Shown here piece by piece: positions 8,328 to 33,773 of a DNA stretch of 64,000 bases (the first letter of the stretch is position 1; each line of letters opens with the position of its first letter). Source of the stretch: an uncultured Planctomycetota bacterium (GTDB lineage: Bacteria > Planctomycetota > Planctomycetia > Isosphaerales > Isosphaeraceae). Location of the stretch: assembly GCA_963845755.1 (NCBI GenBank), contig CAWJTV010000034.1, forward strand, positions 512,001 to 576,000, given 5' to 3'. The notes under the pieces were generated by a model. That model did not search any database and was not told where the DNA came from. It saw only the letters and a list, made by a program, of their open reading frames with translations. Position numbers and translations under genes: made by a program.

Positions 8328-8630
8328 GGCTGATCCTCCTTTCCTTCCCGACCGACCGGCTGCTCGATTTGCGATGTTAAACACTCGCTGGATAATCTAC
8401 CCCTCTCAACGCCAGATCGCCATGGTCGCGCGGGCTGTTCGAGCCGCGTTTACTGGAAGGCAATCCAATCAGAGAAATCGATTCAAGTACCCCAATCACT
8501 ACAAGCTTGATATACGGATTATTTTCTCCAGATTGCCGATGGGTTCGTTCGGTTCGTTTGCTGCATCTTGTCATTGAAGCGACCTCACACCGAACTCCAA
8601 TCGTTAAATTTTGCCGGATCGATACAATCG

Positions 8631-8781
8631 TGGCTTCGTTTGATCGATTTTCCGCGTCGGTTTCGTTCGCGGACCCTGTGGTTGACCGTGGTGTCTGGCT
8701 TCGTTTGATTGATTTCGGATGCGCGCGTCATCCTCTTGCATCAATCCATGCGATAGTCCCTGGCTTCGTTTTGATGATTTC
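8631..8781. repeat. Three TGGCTTCGTTT(GATYGATTT) direct repeats with a 65-bp period
   Basis: Copies start at 8631, 8696, 8761; related variants at 8540-8560 and ~8658. Confidence 0.75.
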
Positions 8782-9454
8782 GCCATGCTGATCTCGCAGT
8801 CGTGATTTCCGGGTGTGGGCTGTCGATGAGGTGGGCGCGCACGATGACTTACAGATATTATGGGACACTTGAGCGTGCCTGGCCACGAATTCTGGAAGAA
8901 AAGTTGGCGGCGACCGGGTGTCGCCGAGGGCGAGTCGGGAAGATATACCTTTGAAGGTCAAGGGCCGCCGGCCGTGATGGCGGTATGGGAGGAGTTCCGC
9001 TCGAGGTGTGGGCTGGCCATCAGTGCAACGTCGAACCGGGCGGACAGCACGGCGAGCCGGTGGCCCAGGCATGGGCTCACGTCCTCGGCTCGCCATCTGA
9101 ACACCAGAGCAGGGGGAACGGCCGGCGGATCATGCCCTGCTGCGCCGATTATCACGCGGGTGATCTGCTCGCGGCCTTGGTCAGGTCCCGGGTGACCATC
9201 GGAAGCCGTAGAGAAGGCGCCCGCATCAGGGGTCTTCGTCCGCCGGAACAGGGAAGAGTGCAGAGGGGGTTCGGGGGAGAGGGGACGTGTCACGCGACAC
9301 CAAGTTGGATCGCGAAATCCCGACACCCGGTTTGATCGTACCTGCTCATCGGTGCGCGTTTATGGGTCGAAGGTGACAGTCGTTCAGGAGCGAAAAGGGC
9401 GGCAGCGTCAGAGCCGATCCAGCCCGCAGAGGGCCAGAGGCAACCCCTGTGGGT

Positions 9455-9695
9455 GCTTCGGTGTCGTCGGACGAATGGCACTAGCTTAAGCGTAACACTT
9501 TATGCCATTTGAGCTTAAGTGCGGATCTCCAGACATATTTTCAACGATTGTAGATATTCGCTTGTAATATTGATAGAGAGTTTAGCCTCAAATCAAGCCA
9601 CATGGACCCAACCTCATATCCTCCTGAATACTATTAATGGGCAAACCGTCGCGACACAACTCGTTTTCTGAAAACGAGTTACGCTTAAGCTAGTG
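9455..9695. repeat. Arm-core-arm unit 1 (core 9484-9690, 207 bp, flanked by TA); right arm split by intron, resumes 12134-12156
   Basis: ACGAATGGCAC TA GCTTAAGCGTAAC ... GTTACGCTTAAGC TA GTG|CCATTCGT. Confidence 0.9.
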
Positions 9696-12133
9696 ATGAG
9701 GTAGGCGGCCAGCCCCTTGATCTCAAGGGAATCCAACCGCCCCCTCCCGAACCGGACAGGCACGTTTTCGTGCATCCGGCTCTCCAGACACAGGATCTAC
9801 ATTTGTGTCACGGTCCAACCCGGTATGCCAGGTCCGCCAGTCGGAGGCCATCATATTCTCCTCGGTGGATCTTACGGTGGCACTCTCGGCAGACGGGCAC
9901 TTGCTTCCGGTTCTGGAGTCGCATCAGCCAGGCAAACCCACCGACAGGTTTGCCCTCCATCTTTCGGATGTGACGGACGTGGTGCATCTGCACCCCGACC
10001 GTTGTTTCGCAGATGATGCATGGGTGGTCCAGGCGGGACCTTGTCCGGAATCGGACGTGCATCTCCAGTGGGTCGGTTTGATCTCTTCCCGTTAGAAATG
10101 CCGTGGGGTTCCGGGTCCAGTCGGAGTTGGCTTTGAAGAAGGTGTTCCGTTCCTTCCCCTCGCCGTCTTTCCAGTTGAATTGCAGAGTGCGTCCGTGTTC
10201 GCAGAGGAGCTGCTTAACGGGCTTCTGCAACTTGTGGGCTAAGGTCTTCGCAAGTGACAAATGCAGGATGTACTGGATACGGCTCATGGAGGCGAAGTTG
10301 TCAGCAAACCTGTAGTAGTTCAACAGCCCCCAATTGGTGCTGTTGAACAGTTCGATGATGTGCTTCACCTCCAGGCAGACCCACGCTGTCTTGGATCGGG
10401 CGATGCCCTCACCGTCACAGAAGCCCTTCTGGTGAAGACGCTTGACCAGTTTCCTGATCGGCGCTCGCATCAGCGGGCTCCACCCCGTACACCGGCGCCG
10501 GTAGTGCCGCCGTTGGTTGTGGCAGTGGGTAACCTTGGGCTGTGGGTTGACGGCCCCCACCTGAAGCCGCGTCCCGAGAAAGAAGGCCTCCTCGGTCTTG
10601 GCGTGAGTGACGACCGTCTTTTCCTGGCTGAGTTGCAGTTTCAGCCTGTCCCATAGGAACGCCTGAATCTCGTCCTTGATCTGTTCGGCCAGGGACCTCG
10701 GCCCCGTGACGCCGACGATCCAATCGTCTGCATATCTGATGTATTTGACTCTGACGAAGCCAGGGTCAAACGTGTCCATCGACGGGAGAGATCGCATCTG
10801 TTTCGTCAAAGCGCGAATCTCCGGCGTCATGATCCCACCTGACCGTTTCAACGCTCGCTGCCTGCGATAGTTGATCCGGTGATACTCGGGGCTGTCCTTC
10901 CGCTTGCTGCCCTTCTCGTACTTCTGCTGTAGTCCCTCGACGAAGAGGTCGAGTTCGTGCAGGTAGATGTTGGCGAGGATAGGGCTGGCCACGCTCCCCT
11001 GCGGGGTCCCGATAAACGAGGCCCCCGGTTCCTTCCTCCATAGGTAGCCTGCCCGGAGTGCTTTCCAGATCAGGCCGATGAAGCGTTCGTCCGAGATCCT
11101 CTTCCGGATCAGGGAAACCAGGACGTGGTGATCGATCTCGTCGAAGCAGGATTTTATATCCCCTTCGATGATCCACGTCACACCAGACCACTTGGTCCTG
11201 AACTCATGCAGGGCCGTGTGAGTCCCTCGACCAGGCCGAAAACCATGGCTACAGTCGCTAAAGGTAGGCCCTTTCGGACTGTCGTAGATCGCTTCGAGGA
11301 TCACATGGATGACCTCTTGGACGATCTTGTCCCTTGGGGATGAGATGCCGAGAGGCCGCATCTTGCCATTTGCCTTGGGAATGTATTCCCGCCGCGAAGG
11401 CTTGAATTGGAAACCCTCGTCTCGCAGGGTCGCCACGATGTCGTCGATGGCATCCATGGAGAACCCATCGAGAGTCATCCCGTCGGTGCCAGGAGTCAAG
11501 TTCCCGGGAGCGGATTTGATTTTCTCATACGCGACGATGTAGAGATCCGTCTTGTAGAGGAGTCGATACAGATCCGCGTTGACCCAGTTGAGGTCCGTGT
11601 TGCACTTCCGCAGTGCTTCAAGCCTGAGTAGGGCTGAATGACTCATCCGAGTCACCCCGTTCTTGGTGAAGCCCTGTGTCCTGTCCCCCTTGGGCCGATG
11701 CCTACTACGGGGACTCTGTCGCCTTGGGCATTGCTGCCGTTAGGCGATCCCGTGGTTGTCGGTCAGGTCCGGTCCACGTTGAGGGCCTCCGTTCATCCCT
11801 TGCCCCTGCTCATTGCAGGGTGTGTCCTGCCGGAAGATCACGGAGGTGAATGGCATGCCCCCGTGAGACAGGAATCCGGGTTTCAGCGTCATTCCCGGCG
11901 GTGATCGAGCACACCCACTGGGACTGGAGTTCAAGCAATCCAGCCTTACCCATGCGTGGCCTAACTTGCGAACGTCTCTCGGCCCTTTGACGCTGGGCCT
12001 CACGTCGCTTCTTCCGCATGCTGTTGTCCCCTCGATCCTTTCGGTTGAAGGTCAGCGGAACGTTTGACCCGCCTTCTTCCAGCGGGGTCGGGGCACTCCC
12101 GACAAGACCAGACAAACCTTAGCCACGGCGCAC
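9696..12133 (-). mobile_element. Group II intron copy 1 (2438 nt)
   Basis: 5' GTGCG, 3' ...ACCTCAT, domain V GAGCCGGATGC...GTCCGGTTC, RT ORF. Confidence 0.95.
9808..11655 (-). CDS. Group II intron-encoded RT/maturase/HNH endonuclease (LtrA-like, 615 aa)
   Basis: YIPKANGKMRPLG, EGDIKSCFD, PQGS, YIRYADD; C-terminal CIIC...HHVRH...CRECH. Confidence 0.95.
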   Translation of the reverse strand: MTRMSHSALLRLEALRKCNTDLNWVNADLYRLLYKTDLYIVAYEKIKSAPGNLTPGTDGMTLDGFSMDAIDDIVATLRDEGFQFKPSRREYIPKANGKMRPLGISSPRDKIVQEVIHVILEAIYDSPKGPTFSDCSHGFRPGRGTHTALHEFRTKWSGVTWIIEGDIKSCFDEIDHHVLVSLIRKRISDERFIGLIWKALRAGYLWRKEPGASFIGTPQGSVASPILANIYLHELDLFVEGLQQKYEKGSKRKDSPEYHRINYRRQRALKRSGGIMTPEIRALTKQMRSLPSMDTFDPGFVRVKYIRYADDWIVGVTGPRSLAEQIKDEIQAFLWDRLKLQLSQEKTVVTHAKTEEAFFLGTRLQVGAVNPQPKVTHCHNQRRHYRRRCTGWSPLMRAPIRKLVKRLHQKGFCDGEGIARSKTAWVCLEVKHIIELFNSTNWGLLNYYRFADNFASMSRIQYILHLSLAKTLAHKLQKPVKQLLCEHGRTLQFNWKDGEGKERNTFFKANSDWTRNPTAFLTGRDQTDPLEMHVRFRTRSRLDHPCIICETTVGVQMHHVRHIRKMEGKPVGGFAWLMRLQNRKQVPVCRECHRKIHRGEYDGLRLADLAYRVGP

Positions 12134-12380
12134 CCATTCGTCGATCACACCGAGGCAAGCAAGCAGTAGAGGGATGACGATCTGCCTGGCTCCGCGCGGC
12201 GGTTGCGGCGCGGGGGCGTTCCGTTCACGATTGACCCGCCAGGTCTTCGGTCTCGCGTCCATCCTCGGATCCTCTCCTGTGGTAAGAAGAAGGATGACGA
12301 AGAGGCCGCCAGCCGGATACCCGGTCCTTCAATACCTGCAATTCGGTAGGATCAGGAGAATCGCAAGGGAGCCTCGCATC

Positions 12381-13163
12381 ATGAGCATCTTCGACCGATT
12401 CAAATTGACGGGAAAGCGTCTCTTCATCACGGGAGGTAGTCGCGGCTTGGGACGGGAGATGGCACTCGCGATCGCCGAGGCCGGCGCCGACGTGATCCTC
12501 GTTGGCCGCGACCCGGCAGGTTTGGAGAAGGCAGCCGGCGACATCCGCGCCCTGGGCCGCCAATGCTGGACCCTCGCGGCGGACGTCGGAAAGCCGGCCG
12601 AATGCGAAGAGGCGTGCCGGTTGGCTCTGGATCATCACGGCCCGATCGACATTCTGATCAACAACGTGGGCGGCCGGCACGAGAACATCCCCACGGAAGC
12701 GATGTCGCTCGACAAATGGCGCGAGCTGATCGACCTGAACCTCACCAGCTGCATGCAATGTACGAAATGGCTCGGCGCGGCGATGATCGAGCGCGGCGGG
12801 GGCGGGCGAATCATTAACATCGCTTCGATCAACGCGCTCGTGGCGGGGCGTGGCATCACGGGCCGGCACTACGAGACAGCGAAGGCGGCGATGCTTCAGT
12901 TCACCCGCGCGGTCGCGGCCGACTGGGCGGTGCACAAGATCACGGTAAACGCCATCCTGCCGGGCGGCTTCATGACAGAGGCGAACCAGCGCTGGTCCGA
13001 AATCCATCCGGAGGTGATCGAGCAGTTCCGCGCCAATATCCCGCTGGGCGATTTCGGCCAGCCGGAGGATCTTGGGCCGCTCGCGGTGTACCTGGCCAGC
13101 GACGCCTCGCGCTACATGACCGGGGCAGCCCTGGTGATCGACGGCGGGTACACGTTGTGGTAG
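12381..13163 (+). CDS. SDR family oxidoreductase
   Basis: TGGSRGLG, NNVG, YETAK catalytic motif, DGG C-terminus. Confidence 0.92.
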   Translation: MSIFDRFKLTGKRLFITGGSRGLGREMALAIAEAGADVILVGRDPAGLEKAAGDIRALGRQCWTLAADVGKPAECEEACRLALDHHGPIDILINNVGGRHENIPTEAMSLDKWRELIDLNLTSCMQCTKWLGAAMIERGGGGRIINIASINALVAGRGITGRHYETAKAAMLQFTRAVAADWAVHKITVNAILPGGFMTEANQRWSEIHPEVIEQFRANIPLGDFGQPEDLGPLAVYLASDASRYMTGAALVIDGGYTLW

Positions 13164-13215
13164 GAAGACTGACGCGGGAATGTGATCACGCCAGTCTCCT
13201 TGTCGAGGACTTGAA

Positions 13216-14035
13216 ATGAACGGACCCAGAACGGTCAGATCGTTCGTGTCAAGTAGCCCGGAGTATCATCGGGCATTCCAAGCGTTCCTGGCCCACACTG
13301 ACCAGAAGGACAAGGCCAGGGAGTGGATAAGGCACGAGGTCGACGGGCTCGCGAATCGGTCGGTCATGATTGACGCGGGCGCCGGCAGCGGGCGGCTCAC
13401 TTCGTGGCTCACTCCGCTGTTCGGGACTGTGATCGCCATCGAACCGAACCCCTCCATGGAGTCGGAGCTTCGGATCGCTTGCCCAGACGCGGTGGTGATC
13501 GCCGCCACGATCGCCTCGGCCTCACCGCCGACGGCAGGGGACTTCGTGCTGTGCTCGCACGTGTTCTATCACATCCCCCGGTCGCAGTGGGAAGCGACCT
13601 TGCTGCACTTGATGGGCTGGCTAGCTCCCGGGGGCGTTCTCGCCGTCGCGTTGCAGAACCCCCGTGCTGACTGCATGCGCATGGTCAACCATTTCCTCGG
13701 GGGCCGCCTCGATCTGAGCGAGCTTTGCCCGATGGCGAACGCAGAGGATGGTGAGTATGAGGCACGGCTGGAGACCGTTCCTGCTCACATTCGCGCGCCC
13801 GACCTCGGGACAGCCTGCGAGATCGCCGAATTCTTCCTGAATGACCTGCCCATGCCCGCGCCACCGAGGTGGGAGGACCTGGAGCATTACGTTGAACGAG
13901 CATTTCAAGCAGGCCGAAGGTGGTTACCAGCTCTCGTGTCATCAAGACTTCTTACGAGTCTCCAGATCGATTGGATCGCCTCTATCGGCGATAAGAGCGG
14001 ACCGTCCGCACGGGGCGCGGCGGTCGTCCCCTTGA
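13216..14035 (+). CDS. Class I SAM-dependent methyltransferase (frameshift near 13900)
   Basis: IDAGAGSG motif I, IEPN, LCSHVFYHI, LAPGG. Confidence 0.8.
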
Positions 14036-14224
14036 TCTGGGGGCGAGAGCTTCTGCGCCAAACGGTGCAGGGACTGGACCACCGTTCGGCTCGTCTCGGG
14101 AGGCCGACGGTTGATTGGCGGCTGGATGGACCGGACTATCTGGGTCTGGGACGCGACGCCGCTGCCGGAATAGCAGCGAGGGTGGGGACACTGTTCGCAG
14201 TCGTCCTCAATCGGCCGGCTCCGC

Positions 14225-14420
14225 CCGTGCAGACCTCACCTTCCTCGCGATGACGCGGCAGCGGTTCGGTCGGCCGCAAGAGGCCCGAGAGGGCCTCGAC
14301 CGCCTCCGGGAGAACCTGGAGGACCCAGCCCGCGCTAGATGGCGAGGCCCCGGGCTTCTTGCGCGAGGCCCGAGCGGTCTTTGCCGCTTCACGCCGTTGG
14401 CCTGCGAGCCACGCTGCTGA
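14225..14420 (+). pseudogene. C-terminal TPR-like fragment of a planctomycete kinase/WD40-type protein
   Basis: 'DLTFLAMTRQRFGRPQEAREGLDRLRE' resembles such C-termini; no N-terminus present. Confidence 0.4.
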
Positions 14421-14481
14421 ACGATCAGCCCGGCGTGCCGCGTCGCCGTGATCTCGCCGCCGTGGAGCGCCTTCCTTTTGC

Positions 14482-14746
14482 GCGCGTCGGTCCGACGACA
14501 CGAATGGCACTAGCCTAAGCGTAAGTCGCTGATACTAAGTGACTTGTGTCTGTGACGGTCGGGGTTCTTGCAGAGAATACCCGACTATGATCATGATTTG
14601 ACGATGGGCTAGCCGGGAAACCAAGGCCTCAGATGGAGCCCCTAGGAATCCGGTCCATGGATCAAGGAAGTCCATTGTTTGCAAGTTCAATTTCTGCCAG
14701 AGGTTGCGCTTATGCTAGTGCCATTCGTGTCGTCGGACCGACGCGC
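14482..14746. repeat. Arm-core-arm unit 2 (core 14513-14715, 203 bp)
   Basis: Perfect 33-bp inverted repeat 14482-14514 / 14714-14746 containing ACGAATGGCACTAGC. Confidence 0.9.
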
Positions 14747-14841
14747 AGAGAGCCGTTCCACAAGACGCCGGTGAATCCAGAACTAACCGCGTCCCTGTTC
14801 CCCTCCCTTGGATACAAATTCAAGAGGACTCGGTTTCACGC

Positions 14842-15470
14842 TCAAGCGAATCCCTTGTCTTTGAGCCACTTCTCAATCACAGATGGAAGGGTGGTGCCCG
14901 GGTTTCTCGTGTCGAAGGGCTTGTAGAGTTTGCCGTTCAGATCGGCTTGAAGGGTCTTGAGAGTCTTGTCCTTCAGCAGTAAGACCGGCTTGTTGAGGGC
15001 CATCATGTAGCCGACCTCTAGGCCGACATTGGGATTGAACTCCTCTTGCTCGATCCGATCGAAGATGGCGATGCCGAAGCCGCAGCCGTGCATGTAGGTC
15101 TTGATATTGGAGAAGGTGTCGTCGTCGTATTCCTTGTGATCGGCCCGCATGGCGGCAATTCCATGCTTTGCGGTCGTCTCCTGGATCACACGGACGATGT
15201 CACTGTGAGCGTCGGTCTCGGTGAACCGCATCATATGAAGGCGGCCTTGCGTGGGTCGGGATGCTCAGCCTGGAACGCCTGGAGGCTTTCTTGGATATCG
15301 GGCGGCAAAGATGGAAGGCTTGGCTTCGGCGGTAATGCTTTGCTTCTTCGTCCAGATGGGCGAGTCGAGACTGAACCTGGATCAGGCATCTCAACGAGCG
15401 CAGCACTCGAATAGTTCGCCAGGCGCCGCCCCTTTCCTTCGTCCCACACGCATTCAAGATTGCTAAACAT
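14842..15470 (-). CDS. Nucleoside 2-deoxyribosyltransferase-like / TIR-like domain protein (1-nt frameshift at ~15233)
   Basis: The two ORFs join as ...KAAFI-MMRF...; motifs RAD and NPNVGLEVGYMMALNKPVLLL. Confidence 0.6.
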
Positions 15471-15565
15471 TGAGTCTACTTGCGCAGTATGGGTAAGCTG
15501 GCCCCCCCCTCAGACTACGCAGTCCGCTTGGAATATTAGCAATATCCCTCGGCAAAGACGAGGAA

Positions 15566-16660
15566 TCAGCTCGAGCCGAGTCCCTCATACTCGGGGGATA
15601 GCCGGTAACTCCGCGACTTCCTGGCCGGGTCAACCACGAGCACGAACCCGCCGCTCACCCATGAAGAGAGGATGTTCCGGGCCGTCCTCTGGGAGACGCC
15701 GAAGAGGCCCTCGACGTCGCGGCTGGTGATGACGACCGAGCGGCGGAAGAGCTCCAGGGCCCGGCGCCGGCGGGGGTCGAGGCGACGCAGCGCGGCCGAG
15801 TCATCCCTCATGCCCCGGTCGGCGGCCTCCCGGGCGCGGCGGCGGACGCTCTCGAAGCTGTCGGCCATGCCCGCGCAGAAGTATTCGACCCACGCCGTGA
15901 TGTCCGCCTCGGCACGGCCCTGATAGTAATTGTGCGACGGCCCGACCGCCAATGCCCGGTAGTAGGCCGACAGGTCTCTGGCGTAGTATTCTTCCAGCGA
16001 ATAGAGCCCCTTCAGGTCGTACCCGCCCCGGTGGAGGATCAGGGTCGTCAGGAGCCTCGCCGTGCGGCCGTTGCCGTCGTAGTAGGGGTGGATCGTGGCG
16101 AACTGGTAGTGGGCGATCCCGGCGCGGATCGGGCACGGGACGCCCTCGTGCTCGCTGCGCCGGAGCCAGTCGACGAGCTCCTCCATGAGCCGGGGGACAT
16201 CCGATGCCTCCGGGGGCATGTAGACGATCCGACGGCTGCCGGCGTCGCGGATCACGTTCTGCCCGCCCCGGTATGGGGTGGGCTTCTTCACCGCCTTGCC
16301 GCTGGCCATCACGAGGGCGTGAAGGGTTCGGACCTGGAGGTCCGTCACGTCCCCTCCCTGGGCCGCGAATCGTTCGAGCCGCTCGATCGCCGCGTAGTAG
16401 CCGAGGACCTCGGCCTCGTCTCGCTCCCGGCCCGGGAAATGCCTCCCCTGCTCGATCAACGAGGAGACCTCCTCCCGAGCGAGGCGGTTGCCCTCGATCA
16501 TCGTGGAGTAGTGGGTGGAGAAGAGCCGCGCGGTCTCGCGGAGGCCGGCGAGCACGGAGGACGTGATCGGCAGGTCCTCCACGGCCTGCCGGGCCGCCTC
16601 GATCCTCATGAGGTGGGTCGCGGTGCGGGGCGTGATCCGGTAGTTGGGCTCGAACGGCAT
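15566..16660 (-). CDS. Fic family protein with C-terminal HTH
   Basis: STMIEGN, HPYYDGNGRTAR, C-terminal 'VSQRTARNILS'. Confidence 0.92.
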   Translation of the reverse strand: MPFEPNYRITPRTATHLMRIEAARQAVEDLPITSSVLAGLRETARLFSTHYSTMIEGNRLAREEVSSLIEQGRHFPGRERDEAEVLGYYAAIERLERFAAQGGDVTDLQVRTLHALVMASGKAVKKPTPYRGGQNVIRDAGSRRIVYMPPEASDVPRLMEELVDWLRRSEHEGVPCPIRAGIAHYQFATIHPYYDGNGRTARLLTTLILHRGGYDLKGLYSLEEYYARDLSAYYRALAVGPSHNYYQGRAEADITAWVEYFCAGMADSFESVRRRAREAADRGMRDDSAALRRLDPRRRRALELFRRSVVITSRDVEGLFGVSQRTARNILSSWVSGGFVLVVDPARKSRSYRLSPEYEGLGSS

Positions 16661-17005
16661 TCGGCGGCACTTTCTCGGTCGGTTTCCTTGCCGTTATTGT
16701 GCCGTTAAAGTGCCGATAAATCAAGCGATCGGTGTGGGTCGAGGTAGGCACTCTGCTCACAACCTGGGACGCGTATCTGGATTGCGGCGTCGCCGGCGAG
16801 GCGGCGGGGGGTGAACGCCGACATTGCGATTAGTCCGACGCTTGGGCGGTCTAGACAAGCGCATGTCCCGCCGGGCCGGCTCGATGGCCGCCCCGCCCCG
16901 GGCCCGGCCCGGCCGATCGCCGGACGGAGCCGGTTCGTCCAACAGACGGGGCGGAGTCGGGCCGGAGCCGGCGACGTTGCTTGCTTCGGTGGGATCGACG
17001 AATGG

Positions 17006-19443
17006 GTGCGCCGTGGCTAAGGTTTGTCTGGTCTTGTCGGGAGTGCCCCGACCCCGCTGGAAGAAGGCGGGTCAAACGTTCCGCTGACCTTCAACCGAAA
17101 GGATCGAGGGGACAACAGCATGCGGAAGAAGCGACGTGAGGCCCAGCGTCAAAGGGCCGAGAGACGTTCGCAAGTTAGGCCACGCATGGGTAAGGCTGGA
17201 TTGCTTGAACTCCAGTCCCAGTGGGTGTGCCCGATCACCGCCGGGAATGACGCTGAAACCCGGATTCCTGTCTCACGGGGGCATGCCATTCACCTCCGTG
17301 ATCTTCCGGCAGGACACACCCTGCAATGAGCAGGGGCAAGGGATGAACGGAGGCCCTCAACGTGGACCGGACCTGACCGACAACCACGGGATCGCCTAAC
17401 GGCAGCAATGCCCAAGGCGACAGAGTCCCCGTAGTAGGCATCGGCCCAAGGGGGACAGGACACAGGGCTTCACCAAGAAAGGGGTGACTCGGATGAGTCA
17501 TTCAGCCCTACTCAGGCTTGAAGCACTGCGGAAGTGCAACACGGACCTCAACTGGGTCAACGCGGATCTGTATCGACTCCTCTACAAGACGGATCTCTAC
17601 ATCGTCGCGTATGAGAAAATCAAATCCGCTCCCGGGAACTTGACTCCTGGCACCGACGGGATGACTCTCGATGGGTTCTCCATGGATGCCATCGACGACA
17701 TCGTGGCGACCCTGCGAGACGAGGGTTTCCAATTCAAGCCTTCGCGGCGGGAATACATTCCCAAGGCAAATGGCAAGATGCGGCCTCTCGGCATCTCATC
17801 CCCAAGGGACAAGATCGTCCAAGAGGTCATCCATGTGATCCTCGAAGCGATCTACGACAGTCCGAAAGGGCCTACCTTTAGCGACTGTAGCCATGGTTTT
17901 CGGCCTGGTCGAGGGACTCACACGGCCCTGCATGAGTTCAGGACCAAGTGGTCTGGTGTGACGTGGATCATCGAAGGGGATATAAAATCCTGCTTCGACG
18001 AGATCGATCACCACGTCCTGGTTTCCCTGATCCGGAAGAGGATCTCGGACGAACGCTTCATCGGCCTGATCTGGAAAGCACTCCGGGCAGGCTACCTATG
18101 GAGGAAGGAACCGGGGGCCTCGTTTATCGGGACCCCGCAGGGGAGCGTGGCCAGCCCTATCCTCGCCAACATCTACCTGCACGAACTCGACCTCTTCGTC
18201 GAGGGACTACAGCAGAAGTACGAGAAGGGCAGCAAGCGGAAGGACAGCCCCGAGTATCACCGGATCAACTATCGCAGGCAGCGAGCGTTGAAACGGTCAG
18301 GTGGGATCATGACGCCGGAGATTCGCGCTTTGACGAAACAGATGCGATCTCTCCCGTCGATGGACACGTTTGACCCTGGCTTCGTCAGAGTCAAATACAT
18401 CAGATATGCAGACGATTGGATCGTCGGCGTCACGGGGCCGAGGTCCCTGGCCGAACAGATCAAGGACGAGATTCAGGCGTTCCTATGGGACAGGCTGAAA
18501 CTGCAACTCAGCCAGGAAAAGACGGTCGTCACTCACGCCAAGACCGAGGAGGCCTTCTTTCTCGGGACGCGGCTTCAGGTGGGGGCCGTCAACCCACAGC
18601 CCAAGGTTACCCACTGCCACAACCAACGGCGGCACTACCGGCGCCGGTGTACGGGGTGGAGCCCGCTGATGCGAGCGCCGATCAGGAAACTGGTCAAGCG
18701 TCTTCACCAGAAGGGCTTCTGTGACGGTGAGGGCATCGCCCGATCCAAGACAGCGTGGGTCTGCCTGGAGGTGAAGCACATCATCGAACTGTTCAACAGC
18801 ACCAATTGGGGGCTGTTGAACTACTACAGGTTTGCTGACAACTTCGCCTCCATGAGCCGTATCCAGTACATCCTGCATTTGTCACTTGCGAAGACCTTAG
18901 CCCACAAGTTGCAGAAGCCCGTTAAGCAGCTCCTCTGCGAACACGGACGCACTCTGCAATTCAACTGGAAAGACGGCGAGGGGAAGGAACGGAACACCTT
19001 CTTCAAAGCCAACTCCGACTGGACCCGGAACCCCACGGCATTTCTAACGGGAAGAGATCAAACCGACCCACTGGAGATGCACGTCCGATTCCGGACAAGG
19101 TCCCGCCTGGACCACCCATGCATCATCTGCGAAACAACGGTCGGGGTGCAGATGCACCACGTCCGTCACATCCGAAAGATGGAGGGCAAACCTGTCGGTG
19201 GGTTTGCCTGGCTGATGCGACTCCAGAACCGGAAGCAAGTGCCCGTCTGCCGAGAGTGCCACCGTAAGATCCACCGAGGAGAATATGATGGCCTCCGACT
19301 GGCGGACCTGGCATACCGGGTTGGACCGTGACACAAATGTAGATCCTGTGTCTGGAGAGCCGGATGCACGAAAACGTGCCTGTCCGGTTCGGGAGGGGGC
19401 GGTTGGATTCCCTTGAGATCAAGGGGCTGGCCGCCTACCTCAT
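17006..19443 (+). mobile_element. Group II intron copy 2 (2438 nt), inverted relative to copy 1
   Basis: GTGCG at 17006; domain V at ~19358-19391; ends CAT 19443; I saw differences from copy 1 only at 17231 and 17480. Confidence 0.95.
17484..19331 (+). CDS. Group II intron-encoded RT/maturase/HNH endonuclease (identical protein to copy 1)
   Basis: Same 615-aa translation, YADD motif. Confidence 0.95.
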   Translation: MTRMSHSALLRLEALRKCNTDLNWVNADLYRLLYKTDLYIVAYEKIKSAPGNLTPGTDGMTLDGFSMDAIDDIVATLRDEGFQFKPSRREYIPKANGKMRPLGISSPRDKIVQEVIHVILEAIYDSPKGPTFSDCSHGFRPGRGTHTALHEFRTKWSGVTWIIEGDIKSCFDEIDHHVLVSLIRKRISDERFIGLIWKALRAGYLWRKEPGASFIGTPQGSVASPILANIYLHELDLFVEGLQQKYEKGSKRKDSPEYHRINYRRQRALKRSGGIMTPEIRALTKQMRSLPSMDTFDPGFVRVKYIRYADDWIVGVTGPRSLAEQIKDEIQAFLWDRLKLQLSQEKTVVTHAKTEEAFFLGTRLQVGAVNPQPKVTHCHNQRRHYRRRCTGWSPLMRAPIRKLVKRLHQKGFCDGEGIARSKTAWVCLEVKHIIELFNSTNWGLLNYYRFADNFASMSRIQYILHLSLAKTLAHKLQKPVKQLLCEHGRTLQFNWKDGEGKERNTFFKANSDWTRNPTAFLTGRDQTDPLEMHVRFRTRSRLDHPCIICETTVGVQMHHVRHIRKMEGKPVGGFAWLMRLQNRKQVPVCRECHRKIHRGEYDGLRLADLAYRVGP

Positions 19444-19683
19444 CACTAGCTTAAGCGTAACAGCTTATGCCATTGGAGTTTAGGCACGGGTCGTCAGGCA
19501 TATTTTCAGCGATTGCAAATATTCGCTTGTAATATTGATAGAGGATTTGGCCTCAATTCAAGCCACATGGACCCAGCCTTATATCCTCCTGAGTACTACT
19601 GATGGGATAAACATTGCGACGCAACTCATTTTCTAAAAAAGAGTTACGCTTAAGCTAGTGCCATTCGTGGGATCGACCGAAGC
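19444..19683. repeat. Arm-core-arm unit 3 (core 19449-19655, 207 bp); left arm split by intron, begins 16983-17005
   Basis: Core aligns without gaps to core 1 in the same orientation (about 85% identity by hand count). Confidence 0.9.
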
Positions 19684-19925
19684 ACCTTCGAAACATGCCT
19701 TGTGGCTGGACGCCACTCTGTGCGTCTGTCACCTTCGACTCGTGAACGGGCACCGATGAAGAGGTTCGATCAAACCGGGTGTCGGGATTTCGCGATCCAA
19801 CTTGGTGTCGCGTGACAGGACGCGTCTCCTCCGAAACTCATCACGAGCGCGGGCGAAGCCCGCCACCGCTGGCGTTGGCGCCTAGAGCGATTCACGCTTG
19901 GGTGGCTGACGGTCGGGGGACAGAG

Positions 19926-21328
19926 CCCCATACGAAACTGGTTAAGCCGCAATCCTTGGTGCGAACAGCAGTTGTCGCGTACTGGGGCGTTTCTTCCGTC
20001 GGCCACGCCGGGGCAAACGACTCAAGCGGACTCGCAGTTTCTCCAACACCCGCCGCAACCGCGCTGGGTCGCTCAGCGCCGCGGCGATTTGCAATGCCAG
20101 CCGCTTCACCCGCCGAGCCGCCCGGACCAGGCTGATCCCACACAGGGGCCCTCCGCGCAGCAGCGTCCCCCAGTGCTGCACCAGCATCCCCAACAGCTTG
20201 GCATACCTCTCGCACAACACCCGCTGGCCCCGCCGACCCCGCGTCCGGTCCACACCCCCTCCCGATTTCCACGCCTTATACAACAACTCCACCTGCCAGC
20301 GGACACGATAAAGCACGCAGATTTCTTCAATTGTCAACGTGCCCGCCGGCAAATCGGTGATCAGCACCGTCCCCTGGCACATCACGCGCTGGCGATCACT
20401 CAGCGTCTTCCCCTTCTTCCGCAGCTCCTTTCGCAGCCGACGCAATCGGATCTCGGCCACCTCCCGGGGCACCCGCAGGGCCACCAACCGACAGCCCAAG
20501 GTCGCCTTGGTCCCCAGGACGACCGTAGTGTCGATCCGACCCTCCGTTTGCCGATCCAACCACGCGCTGATATTGACCCCACCCGGCTCACCGGCTCGCA
20601 CTTTCAACTGCGCCGGGACGCGGCTGATAAAGTGAATCCCCTTCTGCTGATCGGCGGCCAGTCGTTCCAGGTCGAAAAAGCCCAGGTCGCACAACCGCAG
20701 GCTGTTGGCAGGTAAGGGCGCCAGCTCCTCGGCCAGGGTTCGCTCAGAATCGCGCGCCGGTGCCGGTGGCTGAATCTCCAAGCGGCCGGTGGTCACATCC
20801 CACCGCGTCAAGAGCTTCCATCCCGCTTGACCGCCTTGGGGATCAGAGCCACCACAGCCGGGGAAGGATCCGGCCAATTCGGCCGGCAACCCGACGATGG
20901 TGACGTCCTCGACGGAAACGGTCGCGAAGCGGCGCAACAGCGGAATCATCTCGGGCCGGGCCGCGAACAGCAGGTTCAACGCCTTCTCGAGCACCCGACG
21001 CAAACAGTCCGCGGCGCGGGCGTTGAAGCGTTCGTTGAAAGCCGCCTCGCTGATGTCGAGGTCTTCAATGATCTCCTCAATGGTGGCGTCGGGATTCTCC
21101 AGCCAATGAAAGACCAGGGCCTGGACGAATCGGGACCCGGTGAGCTTGCGCTGGCGCCGAATCATGCCGGAATCCTTGGCAGCCTCATCGGCGTCGGTGG
21201 TGAAGAGGGCTTGCAAGGCATCAGCCAGTTGATCGATCGTGATGGTCATCCGGTACTCCTCCGGTGCGGAAATACTGATCAAATGTATTGTACCAGAGGA
21301 GTTACTTCTTAACCAGTTTCTCATGGGG
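19926..21328 (-). mobile_element. IS4-family insertion sequence
   Basis: TIR CCCCAT(AC/GA)GAAACTGGTTAAG at both ends; no clear target duplication. Confidence 0.85.
19942..21249 (-). CDS. IS4-family DDE transposase
   Basis: DLGF motif and Y-R-E-K signature YRVRWQVELLYKAWKS. Confidence 0.9.
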   Translation of the reverse strand: MTITIDQLADALQALFTTDADEAAKDSGMIRRQRKLTGSRFVQALVFHWLENPDATIEEIIEDLDISEAAFNERFNARAADCLRRVLEKALNLLFAARPEMIPLLRRFATVSVEDVTIVGLPAELAGSFPGCGGSDPQGGQAGWKLLTRWDVTTGRLEIQPPAPARDSERTLAEELAPLPANSLRLCDLGFFDLERLAADQQKGIHFISRVPAQLKVRAGEPGGVNISAWLDRQTEGRIDTTVVLGTKATLGCRLVALRVPREVAEIRLRRLRKELRKKGKTLSDRQRVMCQGTVLITDLPAGTLTIEEICVLYRVRWQVELLYKAWKSGGGVDRTRGRRGQRVLCERYAKLLGMLVQHWGTLLRGGPLCGISLVRAARRVKRLALQIAAALSDPARLRRVLEKLRVRLSRLPRRGRRKKRPSTRQLLFAPRIAA

Positions 21329-21383
21329 CGTCAGCCCCCTGTCCGGTGAGCGACGGACCTCCAAGACAGGGGGCTGACGCCCC
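21325..21383. repeat. REP-like 19-bp inverted repeat pair (GGGGCGTCAGCCCCCTGTC)
   Basis: 21325-21343 and 21365-21383 are perfect reverse complements. Confidence 0.7.
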
Positions 21384-22765
21384 TGTCACCCGACAGTAGG
21401 TTTTGCCGCGAATCCCGACAAAAAGGTTTTGCCGCCTCGTGGCGGGGGGTAGTCTGTGATGGTCCGATCCTGCCAACTCCTGCGAGGGTCACTATGCCCG
21501 CTCCACTCCCGCCGACAACCCGGCGCCTCATCTTGCTACGATCCCGTCGCGGCCAGACCGCGGCGGCCATCGCGGACGCCCTGCATCTCTGCCCCCGCAC
21601 GGTCCGGCACCTGCTCCAGCGGGCTCGCGACCCGGCGAGCCCTCAGGGGACCGCTTATCGGCCCGGTCCGGGGCGGCCCGCCGACGACCACCCGCTCCGA
21701 GCCCAGGCCCTGGCCCTGCGACAGCAGCATCCGACCTGGGGAGCGGGCTACATCCGCGTCCGCCTGGCCACCGAGGCCGACCCGGCGACGGTGCCTAGCG
21801 AGCGCGCACGTTGCGGCGCTGGTTCCGCCGCCAGCGGCACCCGCCTGCGGCGGGGGGACGGCGGTCGCCGTCGGCCGCCGACCGTGCCATCGCCCCGCAT
21901 GACATCTGGCAGAGGGACGCCGCGGAGCAACTCCGCACGGCCGACGGCCAGGGCGCTGCTGGCTGCGGCTGGTGGATGAATATACGGGGGCCTTCCTGGG
22001 CACCACGGTTTTCCCCCCACTACTACTGGGCCCACGTCCCCGAGGCCGAGGTGCAGCGGCACTTGCACCGCGCCTTCGAGCGGTGGGGGCTGCCGCGCCG
22101 CATGCGGGTCGATAACGGCAAGCCGTGGGGGTCCTGGAGCGACCTGCCCCCCGCGCTGGCGTTGTGGCTGATCGGCCTGGGGGTCGGCGTGATCTGGAAC
22201 GACCCGCGGCGGCCGCAACAGAACGGCGTGGTGGAGCGGTCGCAGGGGACGGCCAAGCGGTGGGCGGAGCCGCACGCCTGCGGCAACCCGGCGGAGCTGC
22301 AGGCCCGCCTGGACGCCGACGACCGGTTGCAGCGGGAGCGGTATCCCGTCGCCGGGGGACACAGCCGTTGGGAGCTGTTCCCGGGTCTGGCGCACAGCGG
22401 CCGCGCCTACCGCGAGGCGGACGAGGCCGGCGCGTGGTGCCGGGGGCGGGTGCGCGACCACCTAGCGGAGTGGGCCGTGCCGCGCCGGGTGGACAGCCAG
22501 GGAAAGGTGTCGATCTATAACAGGAATATCTATGTAGGAGTGTTATATGCGGGCCGGGACGTCTGGGTCCAGTTCGACCCGGGGCACGGCGAGTGGCTGA
22601 TCAACGACGGCGGGGGCCAGCAGCTGCGGGCCCGGCCGGCCCCCGAGATCGACGCGGAGTCGATCCGCGGGTTGCGATTGTCGGGACGGAAGTAGGGACC
22701 GCCGGGTGTCCATGCGGCAAAACCTTTATGTCGGGATTCGCGGCAAAACCTACTGTCGGGTGACA
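21384..22765 (+). mobile_element. IS481-like insertion sequence (TGT...ACA)
   Basis: 52-bp TIR with 1 mismatch; 5-bp GCCCC duplication (21379-21383 / 22766-22770). Confidence 0.88.
21494..22695 (+). CDS. IS481-like rve transposase (frameshifted)
   Basis: N-terminal HTH, HPTWGA, WQRD, RVDNG, PQQNGVVER. Confidence 0.8.
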
Positions 22766-23626
22766 GCCCCCCGCTCGCCCGGACCGGCCCTTCTGGGACA
22801 GACTCTTATTGCGGGCTTCCCAAATCACCTCTGTGTTTCGGTTCTCCCCGTACGGGGATGACCTGTCCGTTTCATCAGTGAATCACCGTTTACGGAGTAC
22901 GCCGCAGACCAGACGGCTCGGCTGCATGGCGGTTAAAGACTGCGCGGTCGCTTGGCTTCGTTTTGCAGAATTCAGGATGTGCTGCGCGGCGTTTTGGCTC
23001 GTTTCGCGGGTTCGGCATCCGGCAGGACGAGGATTCTTGGCTTCGTTTCAGCGATTCCGCGCGGCACGCTTCGCATTCCAGTGCGATCTCTCGTTGAAGT
23101 ACAAGAATATCGTGCGTGGATTAATAGTTCCTTGCACCCAAGATCTCAAGTGAGAATATTCCTTCATGACTGAGTGAACCCAAAGCGAGCGTGCTCGCAT
23201 TTTACCCGAATGGAGGCACCGATCGCATCGAACCGTCCTGGCAGACGACTTCCCGGGACTCAAAGCGGAAAACCTCGACCCGAGACGGGTGGTCGGTTGC
23301 ACGCACCCTGCGAATCCGCGGGGGATCCTCCTGACCAATCTCGGCCCATTAGCGAACCTCATATTCTTCAGGATGCCGCAACTTGGAAAAAACGTTAATG
23401 CATTTCGGGCGAATTGGGCTCGTTTATTGATTCAAGTCCCTACCTGACAAGGAAATAAAATCTTCGAAAACTTTTTCGGGCCGGTGGACTGATTCCTGTG
23501 CGCTGCCGGTCGGCCAACGCGCGTGCTCGCGTCCGATCCGGCCAACCCGCGTCACGATCGTGGCGATCACGTCCGATCGATCCGGCCTGCTCATCGATAT
23601 CGATGAGACTCGGGATCCCTCGTTCG

Positions 23627-28805: not shown

Positions 28806-28973
28806 GCGTCAGTCGGATCGACGAATGACAGTAGACTAGGCGCAAGTGTTTTCTGATAAATGACTTGGACCTGTACAGGGCCGGTCGTTTAGGGGAAAAA
28901 TCTTAGTCTGTTCACATTATGATTAATTGGCTGGCCGGGAAACATAGGGCTCCAGATGGAGACCCCGAGAATC
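28806..28973. repeat. Degenerate, truncated arm-core unit 4
   Basis: GCGTCAGT-N7-ACGAATGACAG TA GACTAGGCGCAAG; interior resembles core 2 (GCCGGGAAAC...CAGATGGAG...GAATC). Confidence 0.75.
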
Positions 28974-32517: not shown

Positions 32518-32519
32518 TA

Positions 32520-33745
32520 GTGCTTTGTCACAGCTAAAAATTGGGGTTGGGGAAACCTCCGCGACCGTGGATGATACGGGGAACAAGGAGGCCCCCATGA
32601 ACAAGAAGTACATTGTCCGGCTTACGGCTGAGGAACGGGACGAGTTGGCGGCCGTGATCAAGAAGTTGAAGGGAACCAGCGAGAAGGTTCGAACGCGCCC
32701 AGATCCTGTTCAAGGCCGATGCGGACGGTCCGAACTGGACCGATCGTCGCATCGCCGAGGCGTTCGGATGCCGAACGCAGACCGTCGAGAACATTCGTCA
32801 GCGTCTCGTGGAGTACGGCTTTCGAGAGGCATTGGACCGCAGCAGGCACAGATGCCGCCGGTCGAGAAGCGACTCAACGGCGAACAGGAGGCGAAGATCA
32901 TCGCCACACGGCTCGGGTCACCGCCCCCGGGTTATGCCAACTGGACGCTGCGGCTCTTAGCTCGAAAGGTGGTGGAACTGGGGATCGTCGAAACCGTCAG
33001 TTACGAGACGGTGCGGCGGACTCTGAAAAAAAAACGGGATGACCAACCGCAAGATCGAGTACTGGGTCATCCCGCCCGAGGCTGACGGTGAGTTCGTGGC
33101 CCACATGGAAGAGGTGCTGGAGACCTACGCCAAGCCTTACGACTCGATGCGGCCGATCCTGTCCATGGACGAACAGCCGGTGCAATTGCTGAAGGAGTCC
33201 CGCGTGCCGATCCCTGCCACGCGCCGACACGCCAAGCGCGTCAACTACGAATACGAGCGTGCCGGGACGGCGAACATCTTTATGTTCACCGAGCCGCTGG
33301 CGGGCTGGCGCGAGGTGGCCGTCCGGGATACCAAGACCGAAGGTTGACTGGGCGATCGAGATGGCCGCGCTGTTGGAGGGCCGTTATGCCAGTGCCGAGC
33401 GAGTGATCGTGGTATGCGACAACTTGAACACGCACACCAAGGGTGCCTTCTACGAAGTCTTTGCACCGCCCCGTGCTCGCCAGTTGGTCCGCCGCATCGA
33501 GTTCTGCTACACCCCCAAGCACGGCAGTTGGCTGAACATCGCCGAGAACGAGCTCAGCTCGTTGACGCGGCAGTGTATAGCCGGCCGCCGCTTCGGTGAT
33601 GCCCAGGCGCTGCGCGAGTGGAGACCACCGCTTGGTCAACCGACGTCAACAGCACCCAGCGCGGAGTGGATTGGCAGATGAAGATCGACGATGCCCGCTC
33701 CAAATTGAAGTCGATCTACCCCAAAATTAAGCTGTGACAGAGCAC
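32520..33745 (+). mobile_element. IS630-family insertion sequence
   Basis: TIR GTGCT(T/C)TGTCACAGCT; TA duplication at 32518-19 and 33746-47. Confidence 0.9.
32597..33737 (+). CDS. IS630-family transposase (A-run at ~33026-33034 plus extra frameshifts)
   Basis: WTLRLLA, MDE, CDNLNTH, TPKHGSWLNIAENE. Confidence 0.85.
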
Positions 33746-33773
33746 TAGTGCCATTCGTCGGATCGACCGAAGC
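33746..33773. repeat. Isolated right 'arm' (TA GTGCCATTCGT-N7-ACCGAAGC)
   Basis: Near-identical to 19656-19683. Confidence 0.9.

Follow-up and report, generated by a model that had tools for sequence, protein, structure and literature searches.

We analysed a window of 64,000 nt from an uncultured planctomycete of the family Isosphaeraceae (assembly GCA_963845755.1, contig CAWJTV010000034.1, positions 512,001 to 576,000). It carries two intact copies of a 2438-nt group II intron, at 9696-12133 on the reverse strand (copy 1) and 17006-19443 on the forward strand (copy 2), both interrupting the same position of a repeated arm. We consider it very probable that this is an intron of the mitochondrial-like class (ML/IIA) whose homing site is created by another mobile element. 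Half of the site would be the terminal inverted repeat (TIR) of an insertion sequence (IS) of the IS4 type and the other half the spacer of the palindrome into which that IS inserts, the two being read by pairing with the exon-binding sites (EBS) and the delta nucleotide of the intron. Introns within IS inverted repeats are already known (RmInt2 in ISRm17); the composite homing site and a natural switch of target appear to be new. The source genome (G000; 14.3 Mb, 64% G+C, 49 contigs labelled C1 onwards) was compared with 120 other genomes of the family (121 with G000).

The two copies differ only at intron nt 226 and 475, and both have canonical group II termini. Rfam model RF00029 scores 62 bits on the 3′ end of each copy, where catalytic domains V and VI are present (9696-9784 and 19355-19443). 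A bulged adenosine 7 nt from the 3′ end is the rule in group II introns, and the fold of domains V-VI places one 7 nt upstream of the intron 3′ end, as expected of ML/IIA. The intron-encoded protein (IEP; 9808-11655 and 17484-19331) is intact at 615 residues, with reverse transcriptase (RT), maturase and HNH domains (Pfam PF00078, PF01348 and PF21368), and the YADD motif is kept. Its best match among solved structures is LtrA (PDB 5g2x) at 326 bits, the next reaching 113 bits, and class C RTs score just ~100-110 bits against it, which places the intron outside group IIC. From these features we class it as an LtrA-like ML/IIA intron with an HNH domain.

The arm is the TIR of an IS4-subgroup element together with its target-site duplication, and the cores between opposed arms are miniature inverted-repeat transposable elements (MITEs) of that IS. 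Arms were found in 22 of the 120 other family genomes and never in a backwards control, which bears out the expectation of an earlier note on this DNA that the arm would be abundant and conserved, and they mostly form opposed pairs ~230 bp apart. Four pairs lie ~1.86 kb apart (G000:C47, G009, G011 and G014) and enclose a single family of IS4 transposases (68-76% identity; NF033592 over cut-off in G000 and G014), with the same TIR and exact duplications. It is because the arms bound transposase genes with matching ends and duplications that we read the arm as a TIR and the cores as MITEs. The transposase is a single-ORF DDE enzyme with close relatives in 10 of the 121 family genomes and a complete YREK motif in G014. 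The element agrees with subgroup IS4 of PMC2266710 in the consensus of its ends, in a duplication within the tabulated 10-13 bp, in YREK and in its strong specificity for the target arm. However, all four elements, at 1830-1842 bp, exceed the 1400-1650 bp typical of the subgroup, and the many MITEs and the module-bordering palindrome used as target also set them apart.

The IS targets a palindrome which, when empty, has 13-bp arms on either side of a spacer of 7 or 8 bp; this spacer comes in a 'begin' and an 'end' class. MITEs of 225-229 bp and at least two subfamilies occupy dispersed palindromes, each with an 11-12-bp duplication. TIR and duplication are both palindromic, which leaves an uncertainty of up to 2 bp in the position of their border. 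In other genomes, a count by eye gave 26 of 32 opposed TIR pairs flanked by exactly duplicated spacers, rare ones included; of the other six, three are near-matches, two mix the spacer classes and one is inverted. No relatives of the IS4 element were found in viral contigs.

Intron insertion falls between TIR nt 6 and 7. A hairpin of copy 2 (17273-17301, with 17273-17281 pairing to 17293-17301) carries in its loop (17284-17291) an 8-nt complement of the junction; this complement occurs once in the intron, where chance would give 0.003 occurrences within the first 480 nt. EBS1 (17286-17291) pairs with TIR nt 1-6, the intron-binding site IBS1, and delta (17285) pairs with TIR nt 7. The EBS1 loop thus reaches both the 5′ exon and the first base of the 3′ exon, which is the delta-delta′ pairing of ML/IIA introns, and in L092 an altered delta pairs with an altered first 3′-exon base (the single covarying case). 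EBS2 pairs with the duplicated palindrome spacer (IBS2), outside the IS. It forms 8 pairs with its own exon in copy 1 (11901-11908; EBS1 and delta at 11848-11855) and 5 in copy 2 (17231-17238), in which nt 226 is altered. The earlier note had claimed the shared position of the two copies, the hairpin, the EBS2 of copy 1 and the IIA mode of pairing, and all four stand. The TA dinucleotide 3 nt from the insertion, which it had also marked, matters to IS630 insertions and not to the intron.

Since the full site needs both TIR and spacer, an IS4 insertion would have to come first, and the site would then be complete on just the one side at which the spacer is correctly oriented. Spacer orientation would therefore decide which MITE end is used, so that each MITE takes up a single intron and the two in the window are inverted relative to each other. 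Among the junctions of G000, 11 of 16 with the favoured spacer orientation are invaded compared with 3 of 27 others (Fisher p 1.7e-4 with a single false row, C49:144929, removed and 1.0e-3 with duplicated loci collapsed, the loci not being fully independent). Genome-wide, the rule is a preference and not exclusive. The previous claim that only matching arms are invaded holds within the window, where 2 of 8 arms are occupied, but not beyond it. A third arm with the same spacer (28809-28834, forward strand; an end-class half site with a degenerate TIR and a truncated MITE) has its last IBS1 base changed and is uninvaded. The variant EBS2 of a copy on C6 fits its own begin-class exon (5.0) and not end-class exons (3-4). 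Moreover, two MITEs on C7 and C45 that are 95% identical lie in opposite orientation and carry the intron at opposite ends, as predicted by homing and not by co-duplication.

The junction is the same throughout the lineage. All 14 recognisable intron 5′ ends in G000 lie at the TIR/palindrome junction, as do all five close 5′ ends in relatives (G032, two in G046, G087 and G109; 4 of the 120 family genomes), so that the alignment of exon junctions proposed earlier as a check came out in favour of site-specific insertion. Two of the G000 ends (C9:311655 and C42:394854) share flanks and represent one event that was duplicated; pattern matches in G076 and G107 were due to chance and are not introns. 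The insertion site is intergenic.

These data suggest a route in three steps. The sequences show the first: an IS4-subgroup transposon or one of its MITEs inserts at the centre of the palindrome and duplicates 11-12 bp. The spacer then lies beside the IS end, and complementarity and covariation point to its pairing with EBS2, while TIR nt 1-6 pair with EBS1 and nt 7 with delta. On the LtrA paradigm, the ribonucleoprotein (RNP) would next reverse-splice into the bond that joins nt 6 to nt 7, followed by cleavage of the opposite strand by the HNH domain and copying of the intron by the RT. Splitting of the TIR probably immobilises that end of the MITE.

Three intact copies are present in G000, two in the window and one on C7, and three more are interrupted (C11, C36, and C42, cut near the 5′ end). 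The C11 copy is split within its RT gene by a large-serine-recombinase element of ~2.45 kb (L008:8070-10115, equal to G000:C11 965,048-967,501) and the C36 copy by an IS21-type element (G000:C36 46,510-49,020; L014). There are also two ORF-less copies (C45 and C6) and several 5′ fragments, and a further ORF-less copy at G046:C15. A second, unrelated group II intron starts within domain V-VI of the C6 copy (G000:C6 61,739; L004), and the same type follows domain V in L029 and L031.

In a quick IEP tree, eight proteins join the window IEP in a well-supported clade (82-92% identity). The three sister introns with a visible 5′ junction (L111, L113 and L116) sit in bare arms of the palindrome, with an unchanged distance to its spacer. 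They carry a different EBS1, which scores 5.5-6 on their own exons versus 2.5-4 on TIR exons. The left arms of their targets vary, and where a 3′ junction is visible, in three sister introns, a further palindrome follows a short way downstream. No intron of the TIR type was seen in a bare palindrome in G000. Soil data add a contig of run X11 with an intron 5′ end in a bare arm beside an IS4 end, and a contig of run X1 with a TIR junction and a third spacer; variation among the soil relatives is concentrated at EBS1 and EBS2. More distant IEP relatives (36-69% identity) have unrelated flanks, and the nearest named carriers of related introns are metagenome-assembled genomes of Planctomycetota. 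Taken together, a single lineage appears to have switched target, in one direction or the other, between the bare and the IS-occupied state of one and the same repeat.

Several observations weigh against a composite site read by RNA pairing. Spacer preference is imperfect, with 5 of the 16 favoured junctions empty and 3 of the 27 others invaded. The spacers next to the G046 and G109 copies are of the begin class, yet the EBS2 of these copies would suit end-class spacers better (5.0 v 8.0 and 4.5 v 7.0), and EBS2 of L111 and L116 forms just 4 pairs, a loose fit; the L116 junction also carries one extra base. A full-length IEP of this lineage is found in G000 only among the 121 family genomes, and the IEP tree, a quick one, does not resolve the sister clade. 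On the side of the IS, the Y of YREK is replaced by F in the G000 transposase, whose similarity fades beyond ~residue 430, and exact duplications are found in just 6 of the 13 paired ends of G000, the rest needing later rearrangement or mutation.

Some of this would suit targeting driven mainly by protein, in which the IEP or a palindrome-bound protein brings the RNP to the site and the EBS matches arose later under selection for splicing. The register of insertion is indeed constant across two EBS1 types, and the EBS2 mismatches of G046, G109, L111 and L116 are tolerated. However, the spacer preference tracks EBS2, TIR-type introns are missing from the bare palindromes of G000 as EBS1 predicts, and the left arm varies among the targets of the sister introns. 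Thus we regard a mainly protein-driven choice of target as unlikely.

A good deal less likely still is the proposal of the earlier note that arm and core are themselves the recombination junction of an array, parasitised as IIC introns parasitise attC. In its favour, arms alternate with cargo in the window, and the half of the target that comes from the palindrome is indeed found at the edges of cassette-like modules. Against it, in four genomes arms of this kind lie on either side of an IS4 transposase gene and have exact duplications; cores are missing from most palindromes (47-74 sites are empty); a search for arm-spacer-arm circle junctions gave none; and the intron belongs to ML/IIA and not to class C. 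This account is largely refuted: the arm is better read as IS4 TIR and target-site duplication. The likeness to attC survives one level down, where the palindrome borders modules and the sister introns insert in it directly. Least credible of all is a single DNA-level event (inverted duplication, gene conversion or mis-assembly) behind both window copies. They do form a near-perfect inverted repeat of 2485 nt, and in four sequencing runs no contig crossed either intron junction with the window's own flanks (RNA run X15 gave contigs of relatives only), but identity extends no more than ~30 nt past the intron ends, the C7 copy has the bases of copy 1, and not those of copy 2, at the two variable positions, and 12 further 5′ junctions on other contigs have nearly all distinct flanks. 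Moreover, as had been argued before, cores 1 and 3 are co-oriented and only 85% identical, members of one MITE subfamily with the intron at opposite ends, and core 1 has intron-free copies 99% identical on C2 and C47, so that two independent retrohoming events remain the better explanation.

The palindrome-bordered module system is a more novel lead than the intron homing into its IS-filled sites. About 65 palindromes are present in G000; a position weight matrix returned 74 matches with a spacer of 7 or 8 bp compared with 9 in the reversed genome, and 3-7 for each of the other spacer lengths from 4 to 12. One exact spacer class recurs in 40 of the 120 other family genomes, whilst the exact begin-class site was absent from a sample of 400 genomes of the phylum outside the family. 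No palindromes were found in viral contigs and there was no plasmid match. The sites are co-oriented and alternate as begin, cargo, end, short linker and begin again, in arrays that reach ~five modules (G036:C5 953,400-963,450, L176; G043:C8 764,100-785,100, L172 and L173), are also present on G000:C8, C13, C19 and C39, and are often bounded by IS66-type ends. Linkers measure 39, 43 or 103 bp, tandem 43-bp empty units occur, and cargo genes are metabolic, regulatory, TIR-domain (here the protein domain) or beta-lactamase-family. Across 57 sites the cargo-facing and linker-facing arms differ in consensus at positions -13 to -9, giving two arm classes as in pdif.

We tentatively propose, at slightly less than even chances, that crossover at the palindromes serves a system, so far undescribed, by which this family shuffles gene modules, and in which begin-cargo-end modules in co-oriented arrays within IS66-type ends would be exchanged by a possibly heterodimeric tyrosine recombinase. 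The IS4 element with its MITEs and the ML intron would have converged on these sites, with intron alleles for the empty and the IS-filled state. The sites depart from the 11-6-11, dif-like plan of pdif, as the spacer is 7 or 8 bp and a generic site occurs in just 17 of 47 good genomes, and from integrons, since doublets fold as long hairpins but lack attC core boxes. IntI was not detected at E<=1e-60 in the site-rich G043, G025, G026 and G009, three of which are 54-70% complete. No recombinase linked to arms and core was found among 229 scanned of 256 called neighbouring ORFs. Tyrosine recombinases showed no consistent link to the sites in G000 (distances for 21 of 34), G043 or G071, and no link was noted for 10 RAYT/Y1 transposase matches. 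Promoter-like sites in arms or core numbered 0 compared with 2.6 in shuffles.

Other candidate roles were rejected. Arms plus core do not behave as a TnpS/T, RIT or invertible-promoter site, there being neither a linked recombinase nor a circle junction. Single palindromes as hairpins found no backing in inter-arm compensation across 59 sites, a comparison biased by arm asymmetry. As host dif sites they gave weak matches only to the canonical pattern, and singletons in complete genomes have differing spacers; GC skew on contigs was uninformative for dif placement. Linkers of G043 contain, between end and begin sites, a recurring serine resolvase with a res-like AT-rich region, whole or truncated (L237:6907-8086; L172:11469-12398; L173, L175 and L179), which was not found near G000 sites. 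At ~5930-6000 of L173 a cargo module ends in a canonical-looking attC, as if a captured integron cassette. G000:C3 159,200-162,200 (L186 in part) holds an integron of canonical form, with IntI over cut-off and attC-like sites, one of them occupied by another group II intron.

Ll.LtrB homes into a relaxase gene, whereas the window intron homes into a non-coding composite repeat. Insertion of IS into repetitive extragenic palindromic (REP) sequences and IIB introns at integrons have both reportedly been seen. With the arm an IS4 TIR plus duplication, the nearest precedent becomes RmInt2 of Sinorhizobium meliloti rather than the IIC-attC introns. All RmInt2 copies lie in the inverted repeats of ISRm17, and EBS2 pairing is relaxed in both systems (PMC4615759). 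However, RmInt2, as described there, is a class D intron without endonuclease that uses EBS3 and both repeats, while the intron described here is ML/IIA with HNH and delta pairing, uses one end per element, has mostly MITEs as hosts and finds its IBS2 outside the IS, in the IS target duplication. The class definitions and three known target modes are set out in PMC4424553, and with Ll.LtrB/LtrA the intron shares a full-length RT-maturase-HNH protein and an EBS1 loop that pairs with both exons (PMC4424553; PDB 5g2x). Natural retargeting through EBS divergence, with ORF-less copies moved in trans, is described for Thermosynechococcus elongatus (PMC2882425), recalling the EBS changes and ORF-less copies found here; those introns are CL/IIB (chloroplast-like) and move to unrelated sites, in contrast to a switch between empty and IS-filled states of one repeat. 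The pdif modules of Acinetobacter, whose sites are hunted by IS (PMC10132070), and integron attC sites with their IIC-attC introns resemble the palindromes in that short two-arm sites border modules and attract specialised parasites, but the spacer is 7 or 8 bp and not 6, and there is neither dif likeness nor attC core boxes. A literature search whose scope left aside most subscription journals, ISfinder, TnCentral and supplements found nothing on this intron, IS or arrays.

The intron would thus be a parasite stacked on two other mobile systems, sitting on an IS4 element or MITE that sits on a palindrome. It may offer a natural example of two elements together forming a homing site and of a change in six bases that redirects an intron from one state of a repeat to the other, and an EBS swap would directly test the shares of RNA and protein in IIA targeting. 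Intron and IS4 together flag a family-wide cassette architecture that is neither integron nor pdif. The palindromes may also bear on the survey that predicted no dif for Planctomycetes (PMC3025954).

Within the window, both introns lie in a non-autonomous transposon of 10,530 bp (9288-19817). Its IS481/Tn7-style outer ends, with repeated binding sites (left, 9288-9351, forward, also present on C10, C29 and C45; right, 19754-19817, reverse), are flanked by a 5-bp target duplication (9283-9287 and 19818-19822), and the block therefore moved as a unit. IS66-type ends lie just inside (left, 9352-9378, forward; right, 19727-19753, reverse), the left one of a kind that precedes an IS66 transposase in G069. 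Next come the left half of a begin-class palindrome (9450-9472, forward; 8-bp spacer 9463-9470, duplication partner 14487-14501) and MITE 1, or core 1 (9473-9695; 229 bp including its last 6 nt at 12134-12139), followed by intron copy 1. The 5′ exon of copy 1 (12134-12161, reverse) consists of TIR nt 1-6 as IBS1 (12134-12139) and half an end-class palindrome whose 7-bp spacer (12142-12148) is IBS2. Cargo A (12162-14478, forward) holds a short-chain dehydrogenase ending at 13163 and a methyltransferase-domain ORF (13216-14253). It may have been inverted between its flanking TIRs, which would explain the mismatched duplications of cores 1 and 2. A reverse begin-class half site (14479-14501; spacer 14492-14499) leads to MITE 2, or core 2 (14502-14726; 225 bp, second subfamily), with both TIRs intron-free, and to the right half of a begin-class palindrome (14727-14749, forward; spacer 14729-14736). 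Cargo B (14750-16977, reverse) includes a Fic-domain ORF (15566-16660) and a small ORF (14842-15234) with a weak nucleoside deoxyribosyltransferase-like match under cut-off. The 5′ exon of copy 2 (16978-17005, forward) is formed by an end-class left half, with spacer 16991-16997 as IBS2, and TIR nt 1-6 (17000-17005) as IBS1. Beyond the intron, MITE 3, or core 3 (19444-19666; 229 bp including its first 6 nt at 17000-17005), has an exact 11-bp target duplication and is followed by the right half of the end-class site (19667-19688, forward; spacer 19669-19675).

Outside the block, a TIR with an end-class half site (33745-33770, reverse) is abutted by an IS630 element (32518-33747). IS630 and other IS hit the same few bases within the IS4 TIR here and elsewhere (G000:C9 and C42; G045; G109), and the TIR is thus a hot spot for several parasites; a reading of the arms as IS630 ends facing cargo was rejected, IS630 merely inserting into the TIR. 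The adjoining stretch 19942-22766 holds a further, different transposase gene of the IS4 family and an IS481-like element whose ends resemble the outer ends of the block. Lastly, a 23-bp motif occurs four times (8630-8782 and 23037-23059), three of the copies at 65-bp spacing.

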